64,000 nucleotides of DNA from Gammaproteobacteria bacterium (GTDB taxonomy: Bacteria; Pseudomonadota; Gammaproteobacteria; UBA4575): assembly GCA_965222615.1 (NCBI GenBank), contig CBDCUI010000007.1, forward strand, positions 758,885-822,884. Reading direction: 5' to 3'. This document shows positions 3,889 to 64,000 of this stretch, in pieces. Position numbers and translations under genes: made by a program. Every line of letters begins with the position of its first letter. Within the stretch, counting starts at the first letter, position 1. The notes under the pieces are model-generated. The model was not told the DNA's origin, did not search any database, and saw only the letters and a list, made by a program, of their open reading frames with translations.

Positions 3889-5592
3889 ATGTATCGAGCA
3901 GTTGTATTTACCTCACTACTTTTTTTAAGCGCCTGTGGATTTAAAGGCGAATTAGTAAATGAAACCCCTCTTCCACCTAACTTTGCCGTGGCTAGCGCCC
4001 ATCCACTTGCGACCCAGGCCGGGATCGAGATTTTGCAGCAAGGCGGCAATGCCTTTGATGCAGCAGTTGCTGTAACTGCGACATTAGCTGTGGTGGAGCC
4101 TTATGCCTCTGGTTTAGGCGGCGGTGGGTTTTGGTTGTTGCATCGTGGCGATACCCAACAAGACATCATGATTGATGGACGCGAAATGGCACCAAGTAAA
4201 GCCACACAAGATATGTATCTAGGTGCGGATGGAAAGCCAACGGATCAGTCGGTGGAAGGGCCTCTAGCGGCAGGTATTCCCGGTGTGCCGGCAGGCATTG
4301 TACATATCTCCAAGCACTATGGTCGTTTACCATTGAGTACCAGCTTGGATTTTGCTATCCGGGTCGCACATGAGGGATTTGCGATCGACCAACGTTATCA
4401 TCGCTTAGCTACTGCACGTTTAAAATCGCTGCAGCAATCTGCACAGACCGCGGCAATTTTTCTTACTCAAGGCGAAGTTCCAAGCGTAGGTTATAACCTT
4501 AAGCAGCCACAATTGGCACATGTCTTAGAACAGATTCGTGACCTAGGTGCAAACGGCTTTTATCGCGGTGCTGTAGCACAAAAATTGGTGAGGGGGGTGC
4601 AACAAGCCGGAGGCATCTGGCAATTAAAAGATTTGCAGCAATATCAAATTAAAGAACGCCAACCTATCTTTGGTCAATATGGAGATATCAACCTTGTAAG
4701 TGCTGCACTACCGTCTTCAGGTGGCATCGTGTTGATACAAATGCTGAATATGTTGGCAACGCAGGAGCTTGAAAATTTACATGGCGCACAACGTATTCAT
4801 ACACTGGTAGAAGTCATGCGGCGTGCCTATTCCGAGCGTGCCAAACACCTAGGTGATATGGATTTTATAGAAGTTCCCATTGAAAAATTGTTATCCGAAG
4901 ACTACGCCCAACAACTTATAGCCGATTTTAATGTGCACACCGCTACTCCCAGTCAAAACTTTTTAACCGACCCGGTATTATTGGATGGGGATGTGCAGCA
5001 GGAAGGGCAAAATACCACGCACTTTTCTATTATCGATCAACATGGTAACTATGTCGCGGCAACATTATCGATTAATTATCCCTTTGGCTCTGGTTTTGTG
5101 CCTGCGGGTACCGGTGTGTTGTTAAACAATGAAATGGATGATTTTGCTGTTCAGCCGGGCCATCCAAACTTATGGGGCTTAATCGGTAGTGAGGCCAATG
5201 CCATTGCACCGGGCAAGCGAATGTTATCCAGTATGTCGCCGACTTTTTTATATGACGACAATCGAATAGCTATTTTAGGTACGCCGGGAGGGAGTAGGAT
5301 TATTACCATGGTGTTGTTAGCAGCATTGGAATTTGCAAAAGGTGCCAATGTACAAACTATGGTTGAATTGCCACGCTTTCATCATCAGTTTTTACCAGAT
5401 CAAATACAGTTTGAAAGCAACGCACTGGATACGGCTACGCAAACGGTGCTGATTAATATGGGGCATCAGCTACATGAGATGCAACGCAGCTATGGCAATA
5501 TGCATGCAATCATGTGGGATAAAAAAACTAAGCAAGTAACTGCTGCAAGTGACCCACGCGGCATTGGTCATGCACAAGTTGGTCCACATTAA
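3889..5592 (+). CDS. ggt: Gamma-glutamyltransferase (lipoprotein signal)
   Basis: GGNAFDAAVA, TTHFS nucleophile, LNNEMDDF, SSMSPT, GTPGG. Confidence 0.95.
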   Translation: MYRAVVFTSLLFLSACGFKGELVNETPLPPNFAVASAHPLATQAGIEILQQGGNAFDAAVAVTATLAVVEPYASGLGGGGFWLLHRGDTQQDIMIDGREMAPSKATQDMYLGADGKPTDQSVEGPLAAGIPGVPAGIVHISKHYGRLPLSTSLDFAIRVAHEGFAIDQRYHRLATARLKSLQQSAQTAAIFLTQGEVPSVGYNLKQPQLAHVLEQIRDLGANGFYRGAVAQKLVRGVQQAGGIWQLKDLQQYQIKERQPIFGQYGDINLVSAALPSSGGIVLIQMLNMLATQELENLHGAQRIHTLVEVMRRAYSERAKHLGDMDFIEVPIEKLLSEDYAQQLIADFNVHTATPSQNFLTDPVLLDGDVQQEGQNTTHFSIIDQHGNYVAATLSINYPFGSGFVPAGTGVLLNNEMDDFAVQPGHPNLWGLIGSEANAIAPGKRMLSSMSPTFLYDDNRIAILGTPGGSRIITMVLLAALEFAKGANVQTMVELPRFHHQFLPDQIQFESNALDTATQTVLINMGHQLHEMQRSYGNMHAIMWDKKTKQVTAASDPRGIGHAQVGPH

Positions 5593-30060: not shown

Positions 30061-31095
30061 ATGAACAAGATTACACGCATGGGTGTGGATTTGGCAAAGC
30101 ATGTTTTTCAACTACACGGGGTGGATCGCACGGGAAAGTGCGTATTCAAACGACGCTTATCTCGAAGCAAGTGGCTTAAGGTATTAGTGGAGCATGTTGA
30201 ACCGGGTGGTGAGATTGGCATGGAGGCCTGTTCGGGTGCACACCACTGGGCTCGTGTATTACAACAACGAGGCTATGTGGTGAAATTGATTGCACCCCAG
30301 TTTGTAAAGCCTTATGTAAAGAGCAACAAGAATGATGCCAACGATGCCGAAGCCATTTGCGAAGCCATGAGTCGCCCCAACATGCGCTTTGTCACGATCA
30401 AAAGTATTGAACAGCAAGACATTCAGGCCCTGCATCGTGTGCGTAATACTTTGGTGCAACAACGCACCGCTAAAGCCAATCAGATTCGAGGCTTAGTGAG
30501 TGAATATGGCTTAGTCGCACCCCAACAGTTACATCGATTACGCGCTGCAATACCGACTTGGTTAGAAGACGGAGAGAATGGCTTAACGCCACACTTTCGT
30601 TCTTTACTACAGGGACTTCAACATGACGTACTAACATTAGATGCGCGTGTAAAAGAACTTGATCAAACGATTGAACAACAGGCCAAACAAAACGAAGTCA
30701 CCAAGCGTCTACAACAGCTACGAGGGGTCGGGCCGATGGTGGCCACAGCATTGATTGCCACGGTAGGCGATGCCAAACAATACAAGAGCAGTCGCCAGAT
30801 GGCGGCAGCCTTAGGCTTAACCCCCAGACAACACAGTTCAGGCAATAAAGAGCGTTTACTGGAAATCAGTAAACGCGGCGATGCCTATCTGCGCACCTTA
30901 CTCATTCACGGAGCAAGGGCTGTCGTCTCGCAAGCGAAACATAAAGAGGATCGATTGAGTCAGTGGGTCACGCATCTTTCTAAAACCAAACATACGAATG
31001 TGGCCGCTGTCGCACTGGCGAATAAAACCGTGCGTATGGCATTTGCAATGTTGCGAGATGAAAGTGAATATGATCCGAACTTTGCGCTTATGTGA
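30061..31095 (+). CDS. IS110-family transposase/recombinase (A)
   Basis: DEDD RuvC-like motifs GVDLAK, MEAC, KNDANDA; HSSG serine loop; AVALANK. Confidence 0.95.
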   Translation: MNKITRMGVDLAKHVFQLHGVDRTGKCVFKRRLSRSKWLKVLVEHVEPGGEIGMEACSGAHHWARVLQQRGYVVKLIAPQFVKPYVKSNKNDANDAEAICEAMSRPNMRFVTIKSIEQQDIQALHRVRNTLVQQRTAKANQIRGLVSEYGLVAPQQLHRLRAAIPTWLEDGENGLTPHFRSLLQGLQHDVLTLDARVKELDQTIEQQAKQNEVTKRLQQLRGVGPMVATALIATVGDAKQYKSSRQMAAALGLTPRQHSSGNKERLLEISKRGDAYLRTLLIHGARAVVSQAKHKEDRLSQWVTHLSKTKHTNVAAVALANKTVRMAFAMLRDESEYDPNFALM

Positions 31096-52218: not shown

Positions 52219-52509
52219 ATGAAGATACGTCCATTACATGACCGAGTGGTCGTCAAGCGAATGGAAGAAGAACGTACCAGCCCAGGAGGTATTGTGATTC
52301 CTGATTCGGCCACTGAAAAACCCATCAAAGGCGAAGTCATTGCCGTCGGCAATGGCAAGATTACTGACAGTGGCGATGTTCGTGCGCTGGATTTGAAAGC
52401 TGGAGACAAGGTGTTATTTGGTAAGTATTCCGGCACCGAAGTGAAGGTGGATGGCGACGAACTACTGGTGATGCGCGAAGACGACATCATGGCCGTAATC
52501 GAAGGCTAA
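52219..52509 (+). CDS. groES: Co-chaperonin GroES
   Basis: [16 protein letters not shown]. Confidence 0.99.
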
Positions 52510-52540
52510 TTATTAATACAAAAATTTTTAACGCATTTAG

Positions 52541-54205
<1,665 letters not shown>

Positions 54206-54230
54206 TTTCGTTCTATACTCTCTCGTTACG

Positions 54231-54259
54231 AAAAGGCCTCGCAATGCGAGGCCTTTTTT
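54231..54259 (+). terminator. Intrinsic terminator after groEL
   Basis: AAAAGGCCTCGC-AAT-GCGAGGCCTTTTTT. Confidence 0.9.
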
Positions 54260-54499
54260 ATATCTACTTTATTTATTTCGGCAAGAAGGAAACGTTCAGT
54301 TCATTTTTATAATCTTGTCGCTGGGTTCTCGGACCCAACGGAGTGCACTTTGATAAATTAGTTCTACGTAACCAAGTCCTCATGACTGACTACAGGGAAC
54401 TTTTGTTACGGTAATAGCGAGTGCAAGGAAGTACGAGTGAGAGTTCGCATCATGGATGTTGCTTTCAGTTAAAATTAGCTGTTTCTTGCAAAACCATTT

Positions 54500-54625
54500 G
54501 CGCTGAACATCACGTAATTCTTCGAATGCTCGTACTTTTCGGCGGCTCGTGAACTCGCTTCGCTCAAACAGGCACTCGCCTTCTTTCCGAAAAGAACTGC
54601 GCTTCTCAGCGTGATGTAATGCGCG
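54500..54625. repeat. REP/MITE-like structured intergenic element
   Basis: Nested inverted repeats (TTTTCGG/CCGAAAA, CATCACG) around AACTCGCTTCGCTCAAAC; single copy in window. Confidence 0.4.
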
Positions 54626-54770
54626 AATAAGAGGCTTTGAATTTAGATTATAATGAATGTCTGCATTCGGCCAATAGCAATGGTATGGCCTCCCTCTACT
54701 TTAAACGGCATCGCAATGTGCCCAAACTGGAAGCGATTATAACCAGTCAGTAAAAGAAGGAGACCATACA

Positions 54771-55805
54771 ATGAACAAGGTTACACGCATGGGTGTCGAT
54801 TTGGCAAAGAATGTTTTTCAATTACACGGCGTAGATCGCACGGGAAAGTGTGTTTTTAAACGACGCTTGAGTCGAAGTAAGTGGATCGATACGTTGTGTG
54901 CTGCAGCCGAATCGGATTGTGAGATTGGGATGGAAGCCTGTAGCGGTGCGCATCACTGGGCACGGATATTAAAACAACGTGGCTATGTCGTAAAACTCAT
55001 TGCTCCCCAGTTTGTAAAGCCCTATGTAAAAAGCAACAAGAATGATGCCAAGGATGCTGAAGCGATCTGTGAAGCCATGAGTCGTCCTAACATGCGATTT
55101 GTAACCATGAAGAGCATTGAACAACAAGACCTTCAAGCCATGCATCGTGTTCGCAGTACTTTAGTGCAACAACGTACCGCCAAAGCCAATCAAATACGCG
55201 GCTTGGTGAGTGAATACGGCCTGGTCGCACCACAACAACTGCATACCTTACGCAAAACAATTCCCACTTGGTTGGAAGATGCTGAGAATGGTTTAACGGA
55301 TTGTTTTCGGTCTTTATTGCAAGGGCTGTGGAATGATTTCATCGGATTACATCAGCGTGTACAAGAATTAGATCAAGCGATCGAACACTTCGCGAAACAA
55401 AACGAAGTAACAACCCGGTTACAGCAATTACGTGGCGTAGGACCAATGGTAGCCACCGCTTTGATTGCAACTGTCGGGGATGCAAAACAATATAGAAATA
55501 GTCGTCAGATGGCCGCATCTTTAGGGTTAACGCCCAGACAACATAGCTCAGGCAACAAAGAACATTTACTCGGCATCAGTAAACGTGGCGATGCCTATCT
55601 ACGCACCTTACTCATCCATGGAGCACGTGCTGTGGTCTCGCAAGCCAAACATAAAGAGGATCGTTTAAGTCGCTGGGGGACTAATCTTGCAGAGCAAAAA
55701 CATACGAATGTGGCCGCGGTGGCACTGGCGAATAAAACTGTACGCATGGCATTTGCCATGCTACGTAATGGAACCGATTATGATCCTGCGTTGGCAGTAA
55801 CCTAA
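54771..55805 (+). CDS. IS110-family transposase (A')
   Basis: GVDLAK, MEAC, KNDAKDA, HSSG, GISKRG. Confidence 0.95.
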   Translation: MNKVTRMGVDLAKNVFQLHGVDRTGKCVFKRRLSRSKWIDTLCAAAESDCEIGMEACSGAHHWARILKQRGYVVKLIAPQFVKPYVKSNKNDAKDAEAICEAMSRPNMRFVTMKSIEQQDLQAMHRVRSTLVQQRTAKANQIRGLVSEYGLVAPQQLHTLRKTIPTWLEDAENGLTDCFRSLLQGLWNDFIGLHQRVQELDQAIEHFAKQNEVTTRLQQLRGVGPMVATALIATVGDAKQYRNSRQMAASLGLTPRQHSSGNKEHLLGISKRGDAYLRTLLIHGARAVVSQAKHKEDRLSRWGTNLAEQKHTNVAAVALANKTVRMAFAMLRNGTDYDPALAVT

Positions 55806-55834
55806 AAACAAAATAACGATACTTAAGGAAATTC

Positions 55835-56040
55835 ACATCACGATTGCGAAGTAATCTATTAGATGGTAAACCGGTCGAACCGGTGCAAGTGAAACTCGAG
55901 AATGTCCGTGTACGGTACAGTACGTAATAGCGATTGAGAGCTTGCGCGCGAATACACCATCATGGCCCAGCATCAACGTATGCTAACCATTGAGGCCGAA
56001 TATACGTGTGCAGTCGACCTTGCTTTGCCAAACAATATTT
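55835..56040 (+). ncRNA. Predicted bridge/seekRNA of A'
   Basis: Guides GAATGTCCG (55900-55908) and AATAGCG (55926-55932); stems covary with element A; ends approximate. Confidence 0.8.
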
Positions 56041-56092
56041 TACTTGCATTATGAGGGAGGCCATATACGGTCATTCAAAATAAGATAGTAAT

Positions 56093-56500
56093 TTATCTAA
56101 CTCTCCAGTATCGCTCAATAAAAGCGTATTTAGCTACCCCTATCCAATAAGGTACAAAGCATAATATTGGTGCAACTATGTACCACAAATCTGATGATTT
56201 CCATTCCTGAAATTTTATTCCTTCAATTGCTGCAATAACCACATATCCAATTCCAAATACAACTTCATTACCTATAATTATTAAAGCAATTATTATCCAA
56301 AACCATTGTTTAAAAATATAACGCTCATACGCATATCCATACAAAGCTACAATTCCAAACGGAAGCGTTGCCCACATTACGTAGTCCTGTATCTCGTTAG
56401 GCCCAAGACTAGCCTCTGGAATGAAAATTTCAAATACAATTAAGAGAATATTTATTAATATAAATAAATAAAAATAACTTTTACGCAGTAGCTTTAACAT
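56093..56500 (-). CDS. Small membrane protein (inverted cassette)
   Basis: 135 aa, about 4 TM segments, AT-rich. Confidence 0.75.
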   Translation of the reverse strand: MLKLLRKSYFYLFILINILLIVFEIFIPEASLGPNEIQDYVMWATLPFGIVALYGYAYERYIFKQWFWIIIALIIIGNEVVFGIGYVVIAAIEGIKFQEWKSSDLWYIVAPILCFVPYWIGVAKYAFIERYWRVR

Positions 56501-56554
56501 TTATTAAATAAAGAATAATTCTTTATAACGAAAAATCGGATGTCTGCTTTGGGT

Positions 56555-57785
56555 TGCCGATTCAATTGATCATCGCAACACATTGGCTAAATCGTTCTGC
56601 CGGTGTTTCAAATTCTAATGTTTTCCTAGGTCGCTCATTAAGTTGGCGAGCAACCGCATTGAGTTTGTGTTGAGAGTGTACCGATAAATCTGTGCCTTTG
56701 GGGAAATACTGACGAAGTAGTAGATTTGTATTTTCATTGGAGCCTCGTTGCCACGGACTTTGTGGATCACAGAAGTATACTTTGATGTCTGTCGCTAAGG
56801 TAAAGCGTTGGTGATCTGCCATCTCTTTGCCGCGATCCCAGGTTAAGGATTGATACAGTTCACTTGGTAGTTTTTTTGATTGTTTGATGAGTGCATTGAT
56901 GACGCTCTTGGTATCTTTGTTTTTGACTTTCACCAACATCACATAGCGTGTATGTCGCTCAACCAAGGTAGCAATGTAACTGTTGTTTGAGCCTGCAATG
57001 AGATCCCCTTCCCAATGCCCTGGCACGGCGCGATCCTCCACCGATGCCGGACGTTGTCGAATGGATACGGCATTCGTAATTTGACCTAAACCTTCATTTT
57101 TCAAACTGGCTTGCTTTGACTGTCGTAAGGTACGTTGCGTGCGCAGATACACAAGTAACTCCTTTTTCAGGGCGCCACGCGCTTGAATAAACAGACTGCG
57201 ATAAATCGTTTCGTGTGACACGGTCTTACTCTCATCATGGGGATGGGTACGTTTTAGCCAACCCGCAATTTGTTCTGGGGACCAGTGTAATTGCAGTTTG
57301 GTTACCACGACATAACACAAGTAGGGATTCGTAGCGAGTTTACACGCTTTCGGGCGACGCGCTCGATTCCACGCAGCTTGCTCCGCTTCGCTCGCACGAT
57401 ACGTCACAACGCCGCCATTGCGCTGAATCTCGCGGCTAATCGTGGAAGGTGAACGCTTCAATTGTTTGGCAATCTGTCGCATGGATAAGTCACAAGCGAG
57501 TCCACGAGAAATTTCTTCGCGTTCCGATAACGTCAGACTGAGTCGTGATCGTGTTCGTTGAGGAGGACGAATGCCACCTGTTTGTGCAAGTATCCGTCGT
57601 ATCGATGAGTGCCCACGGTCAAAAAGTCGAGCAATAGCGTGTAGAGAGTCGCCTTGCTGCCAGCGATCCCACATCACCTGTTTCTGTGCTTCGCTATAAT
57701 AAATGCGTGTTCGATATTTCATCGTTTTCACCCCATCTTCTTTGTGTTTTAAGATAAAGTGTTGCGATGATCAATTGAATCGGCA
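56555..57785 (-). mobile_element. IS30-family element (1231 bp)
   Basis: Perfect 26-bp terminal IR TGCCGATTCAATTGATCATCGCAACA; 2-bp flanks GT/GC. Confidence 0.92.
56562..57731 (-). CDS. IS30-family DDE transposase
   Basis: RSPSTISREI, WSPEQI, GHWEGDL, TWDRGKE, PWQRGSNENTN. Confidence 0.96.
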   Translation of the reverse strand: MKTMKYRTRIYYSEAQKQVMWDRWQQGDSLHAIARLFDRGHSSIRRILAQTGGIRPPQRTRSRLSLTLSEREEISRGLACDLSMRQIAKQLKRSPSTISREIQRNGGVVTYRASEAEQAAWNRARRPKACKLATNPYLCYVVVTKLQLHWSPEQIAGWLKRTHPHDESKTVSHETIYRSLFIQARGALKKELLVYLRTQRTLRQSKQASLKNEGLGQITNAVSIRQRPASVEDRAVPGHWEGDLIAGSNNSYIATLVERHTRYVMLVKVKNKDTKSVINALIKQSKKLPSELYQSLTWDRGKEMADHQRFTLATDIKVYFCDPQSPWQRGSNENTNLLLRQYFPKGTDLSVHSQHKLNAVARQLNERPRKTLEFETPAERFSQCVAMIN

Positions 57786-57828
57786 GCCGTTAGCAGACAC
57801 AATTCAAACTAAATAACGGGAATCTAGG

Positions 57829-57857
57829 TTGGAAACTCTAAATAACAATTCTAAAAT
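57829..57857 (+). promoter_or_regulatory. Linker promoter 1
   Basis: TTGGAA-N17-TAAAAT. Confidence 0.6.
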
Positions 57858-57943
57858 GACTGCTTACGACCCAATGTATGGACACCTCCAAGCTAAGCAA
57901 TTAGTTTGTGTGGTGTTAGAAACACAAAAGAAGGAGTCCATAC

Positions 57944-58987
57944 ATGAAACATCTAAACATAGTTGGCGTTGATTTAGCAAAAAACGTAATCCAAGTTTGC
58001 GTGATGCGCGCGCAGCGACAAGAAGTAATCAATCGTTCCTATAGTCGTACTAAATTTGCAGTATTTCTCGTTAAACAACAGCGCAGTGTCATCGCCTTTG
58101 AAGCATGTGCCAGTAGTCATTATTGGGCACGAAAAGCCAAAGCATTGGGGCATACCATCAAAATCATTCCGGCAAAAGCGATCACACCGTATCGTCAAGG
58201 CCATAAAACCGATATCAATGATGCCCGCGCGATCGCTGAAGCGGCGAGCCGTCCCCACCTACTTGAAGCCCCATTAAAGAGTGTTGAACAACAAGGCTTG
58301 CAAGCCGTACAACGTTCAAGAGAGCTTTTGGTACAAGAGCGAACCGGTCTATCCAACCACATCCGTGGCATATTGATGGAATTTGGCATCGTCATTCCTA
58401 AAGGCTTTGCCGCCTTGCATCAACAGATACCCGAGGTACTAGAAGATGGGGAGAACGAGCTACCCGATCTATATCGCCCGACGTTACAGATATTGTACGA
58501 ACGCTTAGTGCAACTCAAAACAACCATCACGATACTTGATCAACAAATTGCCGCCCTCATCAAACAACATCCAGGTTGCGAAACGCTCATGAAGATAGAA
58601 GGTGTGGGCCCAATCAGTGCGATATTACTGTATGCCAGCCTTGGTAGTGGCGATGCGTTTAGCCAAGGTAGACAATATGCGGCGTACTTAGGGTTAACGC
58701 CCAAGCAATACAGCAGTGGCGGGAAAACGAATCTTATTGGGATAAGTAAAAAGGTTGCGAATAAACGTTTGCGCTCCGTACTCATTCAAGGAGCACGTGC
58801 TTATGTGCACAAGCTCAAAGAACCGAAAAGCCAAAAAGATCGCTGGCTGCTGGCACTGATTGAACGTGCCGGCTATGGCAAGGCGGCGGTAGCGTTAGCC
58901 AACAAAAATGTGCGCACCGCATGGGCCATGCTGACCCGGGGGACAACGTACAATAAACAACATACAACCACGATGCACATTGCATAA
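57944..58987 (+). CDS. IS110-family transposase (B)
   Basis: GVDLAK, FEAC, KTDINDA, YSSGGK, GISK, AVALANK. Confidence 0.95.
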   Translation: MKHLNIVGVDLAKNVIQVCVMRAQRQEVINRSYSRTKFAVFLVKQQRSVIAFEACASSHYWARKAKALGHTIKIIPAKAITPYRQGHKTDINDARAIAEAASRPHLLEAPLKSVEQQGLQAVQRSRELLVQERTGLSNHIRGILMEFGIVIPKGFAALHQQIPEVLEDGENELPDLYRPTLQILYERLVQLKTTITILDQQIAALIKQHPGCETLMKIEGVGPISAILLYASLGSGDAFSQGRQYAAYLGLTPKQYSSGGKTNLIGISKKVANKRLRSVLIQGARAYVHKLKEPKSQKDRWLLALIERAGYGKAAVALANKNVRTAWAMLTRGTTYNKQHTTTMHIA

Positions 58988-59009
58988 AAACAAAACCAAG
59001 ACACTACGT

Positions 59010-59205
59010 TACATAAAAGTGTAGAAGAGGTTAGGCAAGTAGACCTAGGTAAAGAATAAAGAGATTCGCTTCGATGAAACCTGCTCCGCTTTGAGGATAA
59101 ATAGAATCCATCGACCCAATGAGGCATCGAAGTGCGCATACATACAGGGCTAGAAGATCGCAACTTCACGAAAAAGCCGAATATACATCTGCGTCTTTTT
59201 CTTTA
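59010..59205 (+). ncRNA. Predicted bridge/seekRNA of element B
   Basis: Stem CTTCGATG/CATCGAAG enclosing TCCGCTTTG and ATCGACCCAA; donor loop CATACAT/ATATACA; ends approximate. Confidence 0.85.
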
Positions 59206-59309
59206 TCAATTTCTGTTTGCTAAACTGGCGGTGTCCATATACAAAGCGGACATTTCAGAGTTTAAACAAACGCAGTGATATCCACGTAAAAATACATGGT
59301 ATTTCAGTT

Positions 59310-60017
59310 ATGTTTAATAAATTAATAGTTTCAATCCTGGTTTTGTTGCTTTGCGCTTGTGGCAACGAAGTTGACTCTGAGGTTAGCTCTGAAGTTGATT
59401 ACTATGAATTTGATTTCACAAACAAAGAAAAGACAGAAAAGATTACTTTACGATTTAGTAATGCTAACGTTTCTAGATTTCCAGGATGGGAGCATGATCG
59501 CAATAGACGCGTGTCTGTTTCATTGTGGTATCCATCATTATTAGATGCGGCTTCTCCAAATGTTTGGATGTCAAAAAGTGAAGAGCAAGAAAAGCTGAGT
59601 ACCAAGCCAAATCCTGAAGATAGAAAAATCAATTTAAGAGTTGGCGCTTCCAGTAGTAATACTATCCTAGACCCTAGTATGACTCTTGAAGAGAAAACGA
59701 CATTTCATTGTCATATTGATGGCAGACTTAAAAAATTCTCGGAAGACGGACAAGCCGGTAATTTTTATCGTTATAAGTTTACTGAAGAGACTAAACCCCC
59801 AAGAATTCATTACCTATACCACCCAATCGAAAAAATAAAAGGGATATATTGTATAAAGTGTAATGGAACAACTTGCCAGCTAATTGGAATAACTGATTTT
59901 GGTGTAAGTTATACAGCTCTTGAAAGTTATGTTGAAGGGAGAATGGTAGATGAAGCAATAGAAATTCATGGGGGTATTAATGAATATCTACAAAATAAGG
60001 TTGTTACGAGCAAATAA
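59310..60017 (+). CDS. Hypothetical lipoprotein (cassette)
   Basis: MFNKLIVSILVLLLCA-C lipobox; the ORF-track start at 59217 lies inside the IS end. Confidence 0.75.
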   Translation: MFNKLIVSILVLLLCACGNEVDSEVSSEVDYYEFDFTNKEKTEKITLRFSNANVSRFPGWEHDRNRRVSVSLWYPSLLDAASPNVWMSKSEEQEKLSTKPNPEDRKINLRVGASSSNTILDPSMTLEEKTTFHCHIDGRLKKFSEDGQAGNFYRYKFTEETKPPRIHYLYHPIEKIKGIYCIKCNGTTCQLIGITDFGVSYTALESYVEGRMVDEAIEIHGGINEYLQNKVVTSK

Positions 60018-60058
60018 TTATTAAATTGATAATAGAAGGAAAGACTGCTTTGGATGTC

Positions 60059-60086
60059 ATGTCCGCTAATGGCCGAAAGCGGTCAT
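60059..60086 (+). repeat. Intact 28-bp site (downstream type)
   Basis: ATGTCCGCTAA-TGGCCG-AAAGCGGTCAT. Confidence 0.85.
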
Positions 60087-60114
60087 AATTTAAATCTTTA
60101 TAAGGGAAAATTGG

Positions 60115-60143
60115 TTGGAAACTCAAATATCAAGTTCTAAAAC
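60115..60143 (+). promoter_or_regulatory. Linker promoter 2
   Basis: TTGGAA-N17-TAAAAC. Confidence 0.5.
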
Positions 60144-60169
60144 GACTGCTAACGACCCAAAGCGGACAT
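60142..60169 (+). repeat. Intact 28-bp site (upstream type; empty target for element B)
   Basis: ACGACTGCTAA-CGACCC-AAAGCGGACAT. Confidence 0.85.
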
Positions 60170-60184
60170 TTTAAATTTAATGAA

Positions 60185-60406
60185 ATGGCAACTGAACAAC
60201 TAACTTTTATTCTATTCAGTTTAGTTTGGTTCTTGATAGGTATTGGTCTCATATTTGTAAAAATAGATGCTGATAATCTGAAATCCAAATCTCATGCTAT
60301 GCCAGGACTTGCATTGTTTCGATTTTCTTTGTTCAGATGGGGAGCAGTATTAGTTTGTATTATTGGTAGCACAATATTTTTGTTATTGGGCCTTCGTTGG
60401 TTATAA
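60185..60406 (+). CDS. Small 2-TM membrane protein (cassette)
   Basis: 73 aa, fills the space between two sites. Confidence 0.7.
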   Translation: MATEQLTFILFSLVWFLIGIGLIFVKIDADNLKSKSHAMPGLALFRFSLFRWGAVLVCIIGSTIFLLLGLRWL

Positions 60407-60445
60407 AATCGAATGACCGTATATGGCCTCCCTCCGTTTGCAAGC

Positions 60446-60656
60446 AAAATATTCAATGACAAAGTAGAGTCGACTGCACACGTATATTCGGCCTCTATTG
60501 ATAGCAAGCGTTGATGCTGGGCCAGGATGGTGTATTCGCACCTAAGCACCCAATCGCTATTACGTACTCGAAGTACCTGGACATTCACGGGTTACGCTTA
60601 GGTCGGTTCGACCGGTTTGCCATCTAATAAATTACTTTGCAATCGTGGTAGATAAT
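60446..60656 (-). ncRNA. Predicted bridge/seekRNA of element A, copy 2
   Basis: Reverse complement of 31140-31350. Confidence 0.8.
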
Positions 60657-60699
60657 CCTCTTAAGTGTAAGTACATGTAATTTCGTTAATTGTTTTATT

Positions 60700-61734
60700 T
60701 CACATAAGCGCAAAGTTCGGATCATATTCACTTTCATCTCGCAACATTGCAAATGCCATACGCACGGTTTTATTCGCCAGTGCGACAGCGGCCACATTCG
60801 TATGTTTGGTTTTAGAAAGATGCGTGACCCACTGACTCAATCGATCCTCTTTATGTTTCGCTTGCGAGACGACAGCCCTTGCTCCGTGAATGAGTAAGGT
60901 GCGCAGATAGGCATCGCCGCGTTTACTGATTTCCAGTAAACGCTCTTTATTGCCTGAACTGTGTTGTCTGGGGGTTAAGCCTAAGGCTGCCGCCATCTGG
61001 CGACTGCTCTTGTATTGTTTGGCATCGCCTACCGTGGCAATCAATGCTGTGGCCACCATCGGCCCGACCCCTCGTAGCTGTTGTAGACGCTTGGTGACTT
61101 CGTTTTGTTTGGCCTGTTGTTCAATCGTTTGATCAAGTTCTTTTACACGCGCATCTAATGTTAGTACGTCATGTTGAAGTCCCTGTAGTAAAGAACGAAA
61201 GTGTGGCGTTAAGCCATTCTCTCCGTCTTCTAACCAAGTCGGTATTGCAGCGCGTAATCGATGTAACTGTTGGGGTGCGACTAAGCCATATTCACTCACT
61301 AAGCCTCGAATCTGATTGGCTTTAGCGGTGCGTTGTTGCACCAAAGTATTACGCACACGATGCAGGGCCTGAATGTCTTGCTGTTCAATACTTTTGATCG
61401 TGACAAAGCGCATGTTGGGGCGACTCATGGCTTCGCAAATGGCTTCGGCATCGTTGGCATCATTCTTGTTGCTCTTTACATAAGGCTTTACAAACTGGGG
61501 TGCAATCAATTTCACCACATAGCCTCGTTGTTGTAATACACGAGCCCAGTGGTGTGCACCCGAACAGGCCTCCATGCCAATCTCACCACCCGGTTCAACA
61601 TGCTCCACTAATACCTTAAGCCACTTGCTTCGAGATAAGCGTCGTTTGAATACGCACTTTCCCGTGCGATCCACCCCGTGTAGTTGAAAAACATGCTTTG
61701 CCAAATCCACACCCATGCGTGTAATCTTGTTCAT
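60700..61734 (-). CDS. IS110-family transposase (A)
   Basis: Translation identical to 30061..31095. Confidence 0.95.
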   Translation of the reverse strand: MNKITRMGVDLAKHVFQLHGVDRTGKCVFKRRLSRSKWLKVLVEHVEPGGEIGMEACSGAHHWARVLQQRGYVVKLIAPQFVKPYVKSNKNDANDAEAICEAMSRPNMRFVTIKSIEQQDIQALHRVRNTLVQQRTAKANQIRGLVSEYGLVAPQQLHRLRAAIPTWLEDGENGLTPHFRSLLQGLQHDVLTLDARVKELDQTIEQQAKQNEVTKRLQQLRGVGPMVATALIATVGDAKQYKSSRQMAAALGLTPRQHSSGNKERLLEISKRGDAYLRTLLIHGARAVVSQAKHKEDRLSQWVTHLSKTKHTNVAAVALANKTVRMAFAMLRDESEYDPNFALM

Positions 61735-61866
61735 GTATGGTCTCCTTTATTCAAAGTAACTGGTTCTATCGCTTCCAGTATGGGCACATTACGATGCCGT
61801 TTAAAGTTGAGGGAGGCCATACCATTGCTATTGGCCGAAAGCGGACAAAATCTAAAGGGAAACTGG

Positions 61867-61895
61867 TTGGATTCAATGAAATACAAACTTAAAAT
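61867..61895 (+). promoter_or_regulatory. Linker promoter 3
   Basis: TTGGAT-N17-TAAAAT. Confidence 0.6.
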
Positions 61896-61981
61896 GTCTC
61901 CTTACGACCCAATGTATGGACACCTCCAAGCTAAGCAATTAGTTTGTGTGGTGTTAGAAACACAAAAGAAGGAGTCCATAC

Positions 61982-63025
61982 ATGAAACATCTAAACATAG
62001 TTGGCGTTGATTTAGCAAAAAACGTAATCCAAGTTTGCGTGATGCGCGCGCAGCGACAAGAAGTAATCAATCGTTCCTATAGTCGTACTAAATTTGCAGT
62101 ATTTCTCGTTAAACAACAGCGCAGTGTCATCGCCTTTGAAGCATGTGCCAGTAGTCATTATTGGGCACGAAAAGCCAAAGCATTGGGGCATACCATCAAA
62201 ATCATTCCGGCAAAAGCGATCACACCGTATCGTCAAGGCCATAAAACCGATATCAATGATGCCCGCGCGATCGCTGAAGCGGCGAGCCGTCCCCACCTAC
62301 TTGAAGCCCCATTAAAGAGTGTTGAACAACAAGGCTTGCAAGCCGTACAACGTTCAAGAGAGCTTTTGGTACAAGAGCGAACCGGTCTATCCAACCACAT
62401 CCGTGGCATATTGATGGAATTTGGCATCGTCATTCCTAAAGGCTTTGCCGCCTTGCATCAACAGATACCCGAGGTACTAGAAGATGGGGAGAACGAGCTA
62501 CCCGATCTATATCGCCCGACGTTACAGATATTGTACGAACGCTTAGTGCAACTCAAAACAACCATCACGATACTTGATCAACAAATTGCCGCCCTCATCA
62601 AACAACATCCAGGTTGCGAAACGCTCATGAAGATAGAAGGTGTGGGCCCAATCAGTGCGATATTACTGTATGCCAGCCTTGGTAGTGGCGATGCGTTTAG
62701 CCAAGGTAGACAATATGCGGCGTACTTAGGGTTAACGCCCAAGCAATACAGCAGTGGCGGGAAAACGAATCTTATTGGGATAAGTAAAAAGGTTGCGAAT
62801 AAACGTTTGCGCTCCGTACTCATTCAAGGAGCACGTGCTTATGTGCACAAGCTCAAAGAACCGAAAAGCCAAAAAGATCGCTGGCTGCTGGCACTGATTG
62901 AACGTGCCGGCTATGGCAAGGCGGCGGTAGCGTTAGCCAACAAAAATGTGCGCACCGCATGGGCCATGCTGACCCGGGGGACAACGTACAATAAACAACA
63001 TACAACCACGATGCACATTGCATAA
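61982..63025 (+). CDS. IS110-family transposase (B)
   Basis: Translation identical to 57944..58987. Confidence 0.95.
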   Translation: MKHLNIVGVDLAKNVIQVCVMRAQRQEVINRSYSRTKFAVFLVKQQRSVIAFEACASSHYWARKAKALGHTIKIIPAKAITPYRQGHKTDINDARAIAEAASRPHLLEAPLKSVEQQGLQAVQRSRELLVQERTGLSNHIRGILMEFGIVIPKGFAALHQQIPEVLEDGENELPDLYRPTLQILYERLVQLKTTITILDQQIAALIKQHPGCETLMKIEGVGPISAILLYASLGSGDAFSQGRQYAAYLGLTPKQYSSGGKTNLIGISKKVANKRLRSVLIQGARAYVHKLKEPKSQKDRWLLALIERAGYGKAAVALANKNVRTAWAMLTRGTTYNKQHTTTMHIA

Positions 63026-63047
63026 AAACAAAACCAAGACACTACGT

Positions 63048-63243
63048 TACATAAAAGTGTAGAAGAGGTTAGGCAAGTAGACCTAGGTAAAGAATAAAGA
63101 GATTCGCTTCGATGAAACCTGCTCCGCTTTGAGGATAAATAGAATCCATCGACCCAATGAGGCATCGAAGTGCGCATACATACAGGGCTAGAAGATCGCA
63201 ACTTCACGAAAAAGCCGAATATACATCTGCGTCTTTTTCTTTA
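63048..63243 (+). ncRNA. Predicted bridge/seekRNA of element B, copy 2
   Basis: Same sequence as 59010-59205. Confidence 0.85.
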
Positions 63244-63302
63244 TCAATTTCTGTTTGCTAAACTGGCGGTGTCCATATACAAAGCGGACATTTATAAAAT
63301 AA

Positions 63303-63650
63303 ATGAGTAAATTGAATTTAAACGGCAGCTGGCTAATGCCTATGCTTTATTTGTTAGCATTAATAATCGCTATTTATTTTATATGGCTTTACCAAATTGA
63401 TGATTTTACGAATGATAATGTAGAGGGAATAAGACAGTTTTATTGGGTTGTAGCTATCGCCCTTGCTGGCTGCCAAGCCTTTTTAATAGTTTTATATTTC
63501 ATCAATAACTTCCTTGTTAAGCCAGCATCACTCTACATATTTGCAATATTATTAGTTGTGCCATTTGTTTGCATACTTACTTGGGTGAATTTCATAAAGA
63601 CGGGTGAAATTGATTTTTTAGAAACAATAACAAAGCTTATTGGAATTTAA
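63303..63650 (+). CDS. Small 3-TM membrane protein (cassette)
   Basis: 115 aa; starts 11 bp after one site and stops 3 bp before the next. Confidence 0.75.
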   Translation: MSKLNLNGSWLMPMLYLLALIIAIYFIWLYQIDDFTNDNVEGIRQFYWVVAIALAGCQAFLIVLYFINNFLVKPASLYIFAILLVVPFVCILTWVNFIKTGEIDFLETITKLIGI

Positions 63651-63653
63651 TAA

Positions 63654-63681
63654 ATGACAGCTATTGGCCGAAAGGAAACAT
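63654..63681 (+). repeat. 28-bp site (downstream type, somewhat diverged)
   Basis: ATGACAGCTAT-TGGCCG-AAAGGAAACAT. Confidence 0.8.
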
Positions 63682-63699
63682 AAAATGGGACGCAGTTGG

Positions 63700-63728
63700 T
63701 TGGAATCAATTACATACAAGTGCAAAAT
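63700..63728 (+). promoter_or_regulatory. Linker promoter 4
   Basis: TTGGAA-N17-CAAAAT. Confidence 0.5.
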
Positions 63729-63745
63729 GACTGCTATCGACCCAA

Positions 63746-64000
63746 TGTATGGACACCTCCAAGCTAAGCAATTAGTTTGTGTGGTGTTAGAAACACAAAA
63801 GAAGGAGTCCATACATGAAACATCTAAACATAGTTGGCGTTGATTTAGCAAAAAACGTAATCCAAGTTTGCGTGATGCGCGCGCAGCGACAAGAAGTAAT
63901 CAATCGTTCCTATAGTCGTACTAAATTTGCAGTATTTCTCGTTAAACAACAGCGCAGTGTCATCGCCTTTGAAGCATGTGCCAGTAGTCATTATTGGGCA
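63746..64000 (+). mobile_element. IS1111-type element B, copy 3 (cut by window end; transposase starts 63815)
   Basis: Left end and 5' coding sequence match copies 1 and 2. Confidence 0.9.

Follow-up and report, generated by a model that had tools for sequence, protein, structure and literature searches.

Downstream of groES-groEL, in the 64,000-nt stretch of gammaproteobacterial DNA analysed here (the window), small ORFs are separated by 28-bp palindromes that come in two classes, site 1 (centre TGGCCG) and site 2 (centre CGACCC), and by short linkers without an ORF. The question that this locus raises is what these linkers are. A sequence-only reading had proposed that each is a promoter serving the cassette that follows it. 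The features of the array are collected in Table 1.

Table 1. Array features in the window; linker coordinates come from a re-reading of the letters.
Feature	Position	Strand	Details
groES-groEL	52219..54205	+	housekeeping operon; array begins after it
IS30-family element	56552..57788	-	NF033563, 292.5 bits
Linker 1	57801..57855	+	55 bp; GGGA at 57818; GGTTGGA at 57827
Linker 1 hexamers	57829-57834; 57852-57857	+	TTGGAA; TAAAAT
Site 2, left 18 bp	57856..57873	+	split by IS-A; remainder resumes at 59243
IS-A, IS110 family	57874..59242	+	subterminal inverted repeats; transposase 57944-58987; NF033542, 312 bits
Cassette ORF	59217..60017	+	266 aa as listed; likely start ATG at 59310; between site 2 and site 1
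Site 1, intact	60059..60086	+	imperfect 28-bp palindrome, centre TGGCCG
Linker 2	60087..60141	+	55 bp; GGTTGGA at 60113
Linker 2 hexamers	60115-60120; 60138-60143	+	TTGGAA; TAAAAC
Site 2, intact	60142..60169	+	imperfect 28-bp palindrome, centre CGACCC
Cassette ORF	60185..60406	+	73 aa; downstream of linker 2 and intact site 2
IS-B, second IS110-family element	60419..61826	-	transposase 60700-61734
Linker 3	61849..61893	+	45 bp; GGTTGGA at 61865
Linker 3 hexamers	61867-61872; 61890-61895	+	TTGGAT; TAAAAT
Cassette ORF	63303..63650	+	115 aa; ends just ahead of site 1 at 63654
Site 1, intact	63654..63681	+	right arm diverged
Linker 4	63682..63726	+	45 bp; GGTTGGA at 63698
Linker 4 hexamers	63700-63705; 63723-63728	+	TTGGAA; CAAAAT

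Re-reading the letters reproduced exactly what had been reported of the four linkers, i.e., their lengths, their shared motifs, their hexamer pairs and the way they meet the next site. Every linker has its GGTTGGA start exactly 29 bp ahead of the following 28-bp palindrome and its GGGA 9-11 bp upstream of GGTTGGA; the two hexamers are separated by 17 bp, and the final two bases of the second hexamer are the opening two of the downstream site. The motif GGTTGGAW occurs nine times in the window against 3.62 +/- 1.87 in shuffled sequences, with nine or more reached in 1 of 100 shuffles.

Insertion elements have struck many of these sites. Downstream of the linkers, only the site that follows linker 2 is intact; each of the remaining three is interrupted after GACCCA by a copy of one IS110-family element, IS-A, with left ends at 57874, 61912 and 63745; its further copies span 61912-63280 and 63745 to the window end, and every copy lies in a site 2 and is oriented as the cassettes are. 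Upstream of the linkers, two sites are intact, one site 1 is split by IS-B into 60413-60418 and 61827-61848, and a site-like palindrome directly left of linker 1 is split by the IS30-family element into 56540-56551 and 57789-57800. A further IS-B copy (54679-56068; transposase copy 54771-55805, NF033542, 350 bits) splits a reversed site 1. Linker 2 is the sole linker of the four with an intact site on either side. A Pfam family was found for none of the three cassette ORFs in Table 1.

The linker pattern recurs in relatives far above chance: of the 56 genomes of the order, 19 contain such composites, 102 in all, and a reversed-pattern control gave 0 matches. The length classes of the window hold across homologous arrays, where lengths are discrete rather than continuous (55 bp in 64 composites, 45 bp in 22 and 46 to 52 bp in none), the length to site 1 being kept tightly at 45 or 55 bp, +/-1, with a variant linker of 31 bp also present. 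The earlier suggestion that the 10-bp difference reflects a phasing constraint between neighbouring sites survives in part: that two classes differ by 10 bp is confirmed, but the difference falls left of the 29-bp core, between site 1 and a GGGGA box, follows two sequence subfamilies and is joined by the 31-bp variant.

The conserved unit of the linker is its right-hand 29 bp, made up of GGTTGGAW and 21 AT-rich bp. GGTTGGA lies 29 bp ahead of 89 of 132 site 2 copies and of 1 of 139 site 1 copies; this arm is lacking from 39 of the 132. In the 89 distinct composites drawn from G000 and 20 relatives (21 genomes in six genera), GGTTGGA is fixed at positions -29 to -23 (79-88 of 89 per base), and both the TTG of the first hexamer and the 17-bp spacing are kept in about 95% of copies. 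Among first hexamers there are 63 TTGGAA and 17 TTGGAT, and among second hexamers 26 TAAAAT and 24 CAAAAT; A stands at position 2 of the second hexamer in 75 copies and is accompanied by T at position 6 in 71. Positions -3 and -2 are A-rich in 75 and 67 of the 89 copies with a linker versus 14 and 17 of 43 linker-less site 2 copies, while the A at -1 is part of site 2 itself. The best-conserved bases are GG at -29/-28, G at -24, A at -23, C at -20, A at -15 and ACA at -11 to -9; seven positions are more than 94% identical over the 89 copies, adjacent linker positions are nearly free, and the linkers as a whole sort into sequence subfamilies.

The composites face ORFs. Behind 98 of 116 site 2 copies, an ORF of 50 aa or more begins on the same strand within 200 nt, most commonly at 10-30 nt, and cassettes stop in site 1 or within 15 nt of it. 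The arrays are chromosomal, occupy many loci per genome, hold up to about 25 single-ORF modules and follow co-oriented housekeeping genes (groEL here; nuoN-like, Glu-synthase and FAD monooxygenase genes in relatives). Perfect 28-bp palindromes number 0-122 per genome and occur in 32 of 56 genomes, with up to 180 composite BLAST candidates per genome; in a genus with genomes of about 2 Mb, each genome has 0-2 perfect sites. The interval between the two palindromes in Alpha- and Betaproteobacteria is 17 bp or a third palindrome with the same arms, and has no promoter-like motif.

Comparison of related cassettes indicates how these parts move. An orthologous cassette shared by two genomes (G013 and G014) at 88% identity has a 55-bp linker ahead of it in one and a 45-bp linker in the other, and its homology starts inside site 2, past the left arm. 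In two further cassette pairs homology is lost exactly at the site 1 end, and in a fourth the linker subfamilies are unrelated. From the different linker classes ahead of orthologous cassettes, and from homology breaks that fall in site 2 or where site 1 ends, we conclude that the linker is a module of its own, bounded by sites, as the sequence-only reading had held.

What such a module does is a harder question. We favor, tentatively and at a probability of about 0.35, the reading that the 29-bp core, together with the opening bases of site 2, forms a sigma-70-type promoter of weak to moderate strength facing the next module. Its -35 would be TTGGAW and, after a 17-bp spacer, its -10 would be YAAAAT, completed by site 2's own A-AT; the remainder of the linker on its left (2, 16 or 26 bp) would be a spacer toward site 1, outside the promoter. 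The proposal that each cassette has its own promoter is helped by the 17-bp spacing, the TTG and the linker-specific A at position 2, but is weakened by poor hexamers and by conserved bases unlike those that sigma-70 needs. TTGGAA matches the consensus at four of six positions and TTGGAT at three, and a lenient standard consensus test is passed by 22 of 89 copies and, in a scan of the window, by linker 1 alone among the four (57829-57857); consensus matches in this AT-rich region number 13, fewer than in shuffles (19.5 +/- 4.7). By hand count, the key A at -10 position 2 is missing in about 30 of 102 copies, 25 of which have TTTAAT, and in four of the five copies of genome G005, where GGTTGGA is intact. 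The best-conserved linker bases, including the G and A at positions 4 and 5 of the first hexamer, are not accounted for by sigma-70, and both the distance to site 1, kept more tightly than a promoter alone needs, and the promoter-less interval in Alpha- and Betaproteobacteria count against a promoter.

Two array heads without an upstream site 1 keep TTGGGA, 17 bp and TAAAAT ahead of their first site 2. One of these two heads follows a divergently oriented gene, and therefore read-through cannot serve it. Precedents, as described in the portions of the sources consulted, are ORF-less integron cassettes with promoter activity (PMC6557892, PMC11014356) and, in a member of the same bacterial family, a repeat element supplying a -10 (PMC5896051).

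The right-hand 29 bp could instead extend site 2 as an accessory stretch to which a protein binds and which serves the module exchange machinery in architecture or directionality, comparable to the accessory sequences beside a recombination core site; its promoter look would come from AT-rich sequence and the palindrome's ATG end. We regard this as rather unlikely. In its favor, the arm is tied to site 2 and not to site 1 at an invariant distance, its conservation peaks on bases irrelevant to sigma-70, GGTTGGA is kept where the -10 is poor (G005), and the spacing to site 1 falls into discrete classes of 31, 45 and 55 bp. Within a site, the variable arm positions 4:25 and 6:23 show no covariation (Fisher p = 1.0, 0.45, 1.0, 0.18), and their associations between site 1 and site 2 run in the non-pairing direction (p = 0.006 and 0.037), a pattern better suited to double-stranded half-sites that a protein recognizes than to hairpins. 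The third same-armed palindrome in other Proteobacteria makes three protein-sized sites in about 120 bp. The res sites of Tn3-family serine resolvases likewise have three subsites, and the Alpha- and Betaproteobacterial element resembles them in consisting of three dimer-sized palindromes; the outer hexamer of each palindrome arm is also similar to the conserved outer part of resolvase half-sites. Unlike in res sites, the linker replaces the middle palindrome in the family studied here, and resolvase-family genes are confined to 14 of 56 genomes, with several complete, site-rich ones lacking them. Cassette homology breaks in or at the sites, as site-specific exchange predicts, but homologous recombination could also yield breakpoints in repeats. 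No recombinase was found adjoining the arrays, nor does any track the presence of the sites across the 56 genomes, in which a Y1 transposase homologue is present in 10, IS110-type genes in 8 and resolvase-type genes in 14; all three are missing from complete, site-rich genomes such as G020, and G018 has a Y1 homologue without the other two. The recombinases of G007, a genome with 72 perfect sites, are limited to XerC, XerD and one other of the tyrosine type, and the sites bear no likeness to the dif-like site of the window's genome. The site 2 copies without the arm also speak against an accessory function.

An improbable reading makes the linker a translational leader, in which a short frame running through site 2 and ending just ahead of the cassette ORF loads ribosomes and opens the palindrome in read-through mRNA from the upstream operon, behind which the arrays do sit co-oriented. 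A Shine-Dalgarno-like GGGGA box lies 7-9 nt ahead of the TTG in GGTTGGA, and in many 45-bp linkers the right arm of site 1 has an AGGAG variant ahead of an in-frame ATG. Through the final 30 nt of the linker and the whole of site 2, the site 2 ATG frame is stop-free in 89 of 90 copies (26 and 9 of 90 for the other frames), i.e., 98.9% against 66% expected under independent alignment columns, a null that disregards subfamily ancestry and overstates the excess. This stop-free frame through the right arm and site 2 suggests another constraint than a promoter. In 84 of 89 copies it ends 9-26 codons past the ATG of site 2, and in 57 of 65 no later than the main start, versus 39 and 42 for the other frames, and synonymous TAC/TAT and AAA/AAG changes are visible in its peptides. 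The short ORF at class 1 attI, which has been reported to aid cassette translation, also counts in favor of a leader. However, stop-start overlaps with the main ORF number 6 in this frame versus 5 and 7 in the others, an upstream in-frame ATG is present in only 22 of 89 linkers, and site 2 variation is mostly non-synonymous. The Leu and Glu codons within GGTTGGAA show no synonymous variation and G is never found at -22, which argues for a DNA-level constraint.

Least probable of all is a linker without its own function, the decayed middle of a two- or three-palindrome repeat of REP/BIME or MITE type that spreads or persists for other reasons, its motifs inherited from a founder copy: REP-like copy numbers, three IS types targeting the sites as with REPs, linker subfamilies and the presence in a related family member of QMITE2, an IS1111 target with look-alikes in Alphaproteobacteria (PMC5896051, as excerpted), suit it, but near-fixed positions among nearly free neighbours, length held to +/-1, strict co-orientation with ORFs and tight packing between stops and starts do not. 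QMITE2 of Coxiella burnetii, compared by description only, and REP/BIME elements share with the present family tens to hundreds of copies, a position 3' of genes, insertion by IS1111/IS110-type elements, full and short versions, and look-alikes in Alphaproteobacteria; one QMITE2 copy is reported to supply a -10. The present sites differ in their strict co-orientation with ORFs and in showing neither a GTAG motif nor hairpin covariation, and a RAYT-like gene does not co-occur with them in the 56 genomes.

Among known cassette systems, the integron (intI, attI, attC, Pc) is the obvious comparison: its long arrays likewise consist of small ORFs that share one orientation, mostly defy annotation and each have a repeated site behind them, and the cargo is similar, e.g., a Cass2-domain protein. 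In contrast to integrons, the arrays here have no adjoining intI (G007 has none at all), their sites have no RYYYAAC/GTTRRRY cores, and there are many loci per genome. The contention that this array is unlike an integron was borne out: the same genome has a canonical one elsewhere, with intI (TIGR02249, 490.9 bits) and attC-type repeats of quite different sequence. ORF-less integron cassettes, in the portions of PMC6557892 and PMC11014356 consulted, are also short gene-less modules between recombination sites, proposed or shown to drive downstream cassettes; those are occasional and diverse and flanked by attC, whereas here one conserved family with putative promoter activity stands at most junctions, between 28-bp palindromes of two classes with no adjoining integrase. 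The plasmid dif modules of Acinetobacter, with their pdif XerC/XerD sites, are alike, from what extracts of PMC6449649 and PMC13141974 describe, in 28-bp 11-6-11 sites, two alternating module types and an array without a dedicated recombinase gene, and in being home to site-targeting IS (PMC10132070, likewise in extract). The present sites are direct and alternate in central sequence rather than orientation, are unlike the genome's dif-like site, and form chromosomal arrays of single-ORF modules behind housekeeping operons.

The linkers are copies of a conserved ORF-less module that alternates with ORF modules in a cassette-like, integron-independent array. If they are promoters, transcription would begin within site 2 and continue into the module that follows; in the window, the transcripts from three of the four would enter an IS110-family element inserted in site 2. 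A protein on site 2 would then cover the -10/+1 region, and expression of the next module may be regulated by such a site-binding protein.

An array of small ORFs fills the window from the groES-groEL operon to the end of its contig. Between the ORFs lies a composite repeat in which site 1, a 28-bp imperfect palindrome with the centre TGGCCG, is followed by a linker and then by site 2, a 28-bp palindrome with the centre CGACCC; the small ORF between a site 2 and the next site 1 is what we call a cassette. The sequence-only reading had described four linkers of 55, 55, 45 and 45 bp, each holding a promoter-like pair of hexamers, and these intervals proved exact on re-reading. The motif GGTTGGA lies 29 bp before site 2 in all four linkers, with GGGA 9-11 bp further left, and the gap between the first hexamer (TTGGAW, a candidate -35) and the second (NAAAAY, a candidate -10) is 17 bp in every copy, the last two bases of the second hexamer being the first two of site 2. 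The window has 9 copies of GGTTGGAW, where shuffled sequence has 3.6 +/- 1.9. The linker observation is confirmed here and holds for relatives as well. Rfam searches of 54000-64000, of eight array loci and of two others gave no match at threshold.

Features of the array in the window
Feature	Position	Strand or orientation	Remark
groES-groEL	52219-54205		housekeeping operon; the array starts after it
Cassette ORF	56093-56500	minus	without Pfam family
Cassette ORF	59217-60017	plus	without Pfam family
Cassette ORF	60185-60406	plus	without Pfam family
Cassette ORF	63303-63650	plus	without Pfam family
Linker 1	57801-57855		
Linker 2	60087-60141		
Linker 3	61849-61893		
Linker 4	63682-63726		
IS-A (IS110-family)	57874-59242, 61912-63280, 63745-64000	cassette orientation	in site 2, after GACCCA
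IS-B (IS110-family)	54679-56068, 60419-61826, near 30061-31095		in site 1, after ATGACC
IS30-family element	56552-57788		splits a site 1-like palindrome left of linker 1

The sites of the window are heavily interrupted by insertion sequences. The two IS110-family elements both have subterminal inverted repeats and each homes to one site class: IS-A, inserted each time behind the same six bases and in the direction of the cassettes, occupies three of the four site 2 copies, and IS-B occupies two site 1 copies of the array. A third type, an IS30-family element, also targets the sites, as it is found in the window and again inside site 2 after ACGAC at C9:256816 (locus L191 of the source genome). 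As a result of these insertions, only linker 2 keeps both neighbouring sites intact, and three of the four putative promoters of the window now point at a transposase gene. IS110-type genes gave 11 matches in the source genome and none in the site-rich relatives, and are present in 8 of the 56 genomes of the order that we compared; their absence from the site-rich relatives makes these elements late invaders rather than machinery of the arrays.

We tabulated linker lengths in the 56 genomes, all of a single family, with a search that required 50-80 bp between the centres of site 1 and site 2 and left the linker sequence unconstrained, thus admitting linkers of 33-63 bp. It retrieved 102 composites in 19 of the 56 genomes, and a reversed-pattern control retrieved none. 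As the sequence-only reading had proposed, linker lengths form two discrete classes: 55 bp in 64 composites, 54 in 8, 56 in 2, and 53 and 57 in one each, and then 45 bp in 22, 44 in 3 and 43 in one, with 46-52 bp empty. The 10-bp difference is located between site 1 and a GGGGA box, and the right-hand 29 bp of the linker, starting at GGTTGGA (the right arm), are constant in length; one 31-bp linker has just 2 bp to the left of GGTTGGA. Two classes one helical turn apart fit the phasing constraint that had been suggested, but the constraint concerns the spacing between site 1 and the right arm. Such a constrained spacing is an argument for a nucleoprotein complex rather than a promoter.

Conservation was read from 89-90 distinct composites of the source genome and 20 relatives, at loci picked around composite matches. 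GGTTGGA is the most conserved part of the linker (79-88 of 89 per base) and keeps its register in about 95% of the 89; the other conserved positions, counted leftward from site 2, are C at -20, A at -15 and ACA at -11 to -9. The motif, with at least six of its seven bases, stands at -29 in 89 of 132 distinct site 2 copies, an upper estimate in a sample enriched for composites, against 1 of 139 site 1 copies, and by our reading four further site 2 copies have it shifted by one base. Judged by this sequence association, the right arm belongs to site 2. Of two array heads without an upstream site 1, one follows a nuoN-like gene and the other a divergent DnaJ/PilZ gene, and in both the first site 2 is still preceded by TTGGGA, 17 bp and TAAAAT. 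The A at -1 belongs to the palindrome: 33 of the 43 site 2 copies that lack a linker have it, and T at +1 mirrors it. In contrast, A at -3 and at -2 is specific to linkers (75/89 and 67/89, against 14/43 and 17/43 in linker-less site 2 copies).

Another repeat, about 50-70 nt long with two short hairpins and no match in Rfam, is present as a diverged copy in the window at about 54400-54480 and in at least 18 copies in the source genome, including C9:675192, C9:787455 (-), C9:927062 (-) and C7:373250; relatives also carry copies. In three copies of the source genome and at the array head after nuoN in relative G008, it takes the place of site 1 directly before the right arm and site 2, and it may mark array heads.

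Arrays in the relatives reach about 25 modules in 16 kb, all co-oriented, and start directly after housekeeping genes, namely those for an FAD monooxygenase, a nuoN-like protein and Glu-synthase, as the array of the window does after groEL. For 98 of 116 site 2 copies, an ORF on the same strand starts no more than 200 nt downstream, most often at 10-30 nt, and for 109 of 126 site 1 copies one ends no more than 120 nt upstream. The stop of the upstream ORF overlaps the start of site 1 in 21 of these 126, often as the TGA within the ATGA that opens it (e.g., L174:3621-3648 and 4196-4223). The ATG of site 1 itself opens a frame of nine codons, and its TAA stop is completed by the two conserved bases with which the linker begins. 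Counts of perfect 28-bp palindromes range from 0 (as in relative G015) to 122 per genome, with palindromes in 32 of the 56 genomes and none in the control, and BLAST candidates of the composite number up to 180 per genome, the source genome being poor in them. An initial genome-wide palindrome regex allowing three mismatches was dropped, as its 68 matches were no improvement on the 36-62 in shuffles. At L154:720-890 (minus strand, relative G014), the DNA beyond the final site 1 of an array resembles, by our reading of alignment A3, the 3' half of a tRNA gene, as would be expected if arrays end at tRNA loci.

In Alphaproteobacteria and Betaproteobacteria, these arms and centres stand between small co-oriented ORFs as well, either as doublets 17 bp apart or as triplets whose middle palindrome has the centre GGGGGT. 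In the triplets (for instance loci L060 and L063, from a betaproteobacterial MAG contig, and L031 and L073, from Pseudolabrys MAGs), palindromes of 28-29 bp have identical arms, the centres TGGCAC, GGGGGT and TGACCC, and a spacing of exactly 17 bp. The same system appears to exist beyond the family of the host, with a third palindrome in place of the linker. In the collection scan, the complementary left arm was present in 102 of 149 pattern matches; the 47 without it, which include archaeal, actinobacterial and planctomycete records, are probably due to chance. By our own arithmetic, about 1,100 chance matches are expected for the 16-mer of the scan across the whole collection. Given this expectation and the matches without a left arm, we claim the distribution for Proteobacteria only.

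The proposal that each linker is a separate, site-bounded module is borne out by five cassette pairs drawn from 44 cross-locus matches (alignments A1, A3-A6), in which the same module stands in differing contexts and homology ends at or inside the sites. For instance, the linker before a cassette of 88% identity is 55 bp long in one of the relatives G013 and G014 and 45 bp long in the other, with homology beginning inside site 2 past its left arm and an unusual right arm common to both. In two pairs homology stops exactly at the end of site 1, after which one member has a linker and the other unrelated DNA. The linkers of a further pair, of 83% identity, belong to unrelated subfamilies, and those of another are about 70% identical before cassettes of about 90% identity. 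With differing linkers before orthologous cassettes and breakpoints in or at the sites, ORF and linker modules have been exchanged independently, although homologous recombination between repeats could also have produced these breakpoints.

That the linker was selected as a promoter, as the sequence-only reading held, is a plausible candidate to which we give a probability of about 0.35, and it faces two serious rivals. Its case consists of a constant 17 bp between the hexamers, a TTG conserved in the first of them, a linker-specific A at position 2 of the -10, the orientation toward, and closeness to, an ORF start, and the retention of the arm at array heads, one of them beyond the reach of read-through. 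There are precedents in integron cassettes that lack an ORF and bear promoters (PMC6557892, PMC11014356) and, in the same bacterial family, in a -10 carried by a repeat element (PMC5896051). The hexamers themselves, however, are weak: a lenient consensus rule is passed by one of the four window copies and by 22 of 89 overall, and this AT-rich region shows no excess of consensus matches. Among sequencing runs recorded as RNA, none contains the stretch 59262-60420 of the window. Of 89 copies, 71 have both A2 and T6 in the -10; A5 and T6 come from the palindrome itself. By hand count, the A at position 2 is missing in about 30 of 102 composites, 25 of which read TTTAAT, and in relative G005 four of five copies lack it with GGTTGGA intact. 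Heat-shock, envelope-stress and nitrogen-type sigma factors do not fit in spacing or motifs, and an IHF site in the linker does not fit either, both judged by eye against consensus sequences.

Other properties of the linker would be better expected if the right arm were an accessory protein-binding arm of site 2. The highest conservation falls on bases that sigma-70 does not read, and the distance to site 1 is constrained, both of which speak against a promoter. This protein-binding role is, on the sequences compared, unlikely but a serious competitor.

An improbable further reading is that the linker forms part of a short leader reading frame running through site 2. Read in the frame of the site 2 ATG, the stretch from -30 to +27 has no stop codon in 89 of 90 copies, against 26/90 and 9/90 in the other frames, and 66% would be expected to be stop-free with independent alignment columns, a null that ignores shared ancestry. 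The in-frame TTG of GGTTGGA has the GGGGA box 7-9 nt upstream, and many 45-bp linkers have an in-frame ATG after an AGGAG variant of the right arm of site 1. However, an in-frame upstream ATG is found in only 22 of 89 linkers, and the codons within GGTTGGAA have no synonymous change. Overlaps of stop and start with the main ORF number 6 in this frame against 5 and 7 in the others, and as they are not enriched in the frame of the site, translational coupling was rejected. No reading so far accounts in full for the stop-free frame.

We found no recombinase gene adjoining the arrays at the array loci. A tblastn search with ten recombinases and transposases of the source genome against 142 site-bearing loci of other taxa gave five locus matches in total, and no protein family recurs beside the sites in those taxa, the largest cluster covering eight loci that partly overlap on one contig. 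As movers, we rejected IS110-type elements, whose presence in the 56 genomes shows no co-occurrence with the sites, and a serine resolvase with a res site, since PF00239 is found in 14 of the 56 genomes and is missing from the site-holding source genome (G000), G001, G006, G018, G020, G023 and others. A Y1-transposase/RAYT-like gene, present in 10 of 56 genomes, is missing from those with the most sites.

The suggested departure from integrons holds in that the arrays adjoin groEL, nuoN-like, Glu-synthase and FAD-monooxygenase genes and have neither intI beside them nor attC sites with RYYYAAC/GTTRRRY cores. In relative G007, a complete genome with 72 perfect sites, the tyrosine recombinases are XerC, XerD and one other, with no intI-type match. 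The source genome does have a canonical integron in locus L247 (C9:393000-399000), with intI at 4310-5290 (TIGR02249, 490.9 bits) and, upstream, minus-strand cassettes with attC-type repeats unrelated to the 28-bp sites. Similar to Xer dif modules, our sites are 28 bp long with an 11-6-11 layout; unlike them, they differ in sequence from the dif-like site of the source genome and are all in direct orientation within an array. XerCD was rejected as mover on site sequence only. The best dif-like site of the source genome, L189:1539-1566 (C9:261038-261065), lies 0.9 kb past the last site 1 of another array, flanked by two inverted near-identical ORFs of 135-138 aa and adjoining the gene of a 216-aa tyrosine recombinase.

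With RAYT-mobilised REP/BIME repeats the sites share a high extragenic copy number (at most 122 perfect sites per genome) and targeting by IS110/IS1111-type elements. They differ from them in that the RAYT-like gene does not co-occur and in the lack of covariation between arm positions; no more than 25 of 139 site 1 and 30 of 132 site 2 copies have complementary bases at all nine arm pairs. In the predicted fold of the composite, site 1 and site 2 pair with each other (-17 kcal/mol, compared with -7.9 +/- 2.3; z -3.9). Hairpin or attC-like folding was nevertheless rejected, as the variable arm positions do not covary within sites and the association between sites is non-pairing. Without compensatory covariation, we read the sites as duplex half-sites for a protein, not hairpins. 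QMITE2 of Coxiella burnetii, as PMC5896051 describes it, is the one possible relative in print, likened by its description. Literature searches (sequence words; IS1111 with palindromes; Aquicella with repeats or cassettes) yielded no description of such arrays, and the sequence-word matches listed were unrelated primers and the like.

We tentatively propose, while thinking it somewhat doubtful, that the arrays are a third kind of gene cassette beside integrons and dif modules, in which two heterospecific classes of 28-bp palindrome bound alternating ORF modules and promoter-like linker modules. Such arrays would build up downstream of highly expressed housekeeping operons, at many loci in each genome, and their modules would be moved by an enzyme acting in trans from outside the recombinase families tested. 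The palindromes, as doublets or triplets between small ORFs, are found in Alpha-, Beta- and Gammaproteobacteria. Such a system would be nature's counterpart of cassette exchange between incompatible sites. Should the linkers be promoters, an array would be a string of separately driven and separately exchangeable genes rather than an operon read from one end, and the switch, site 2, would sit on the -10/+1 region of each gene, an expression logic unlike that of integrons. Whatever the role of the linker, the architecture is widespread and cassette-like, with precise module boundaries and no recognisable recombinase, and the comparative data make the question of how these arrays are assembled directly testable.
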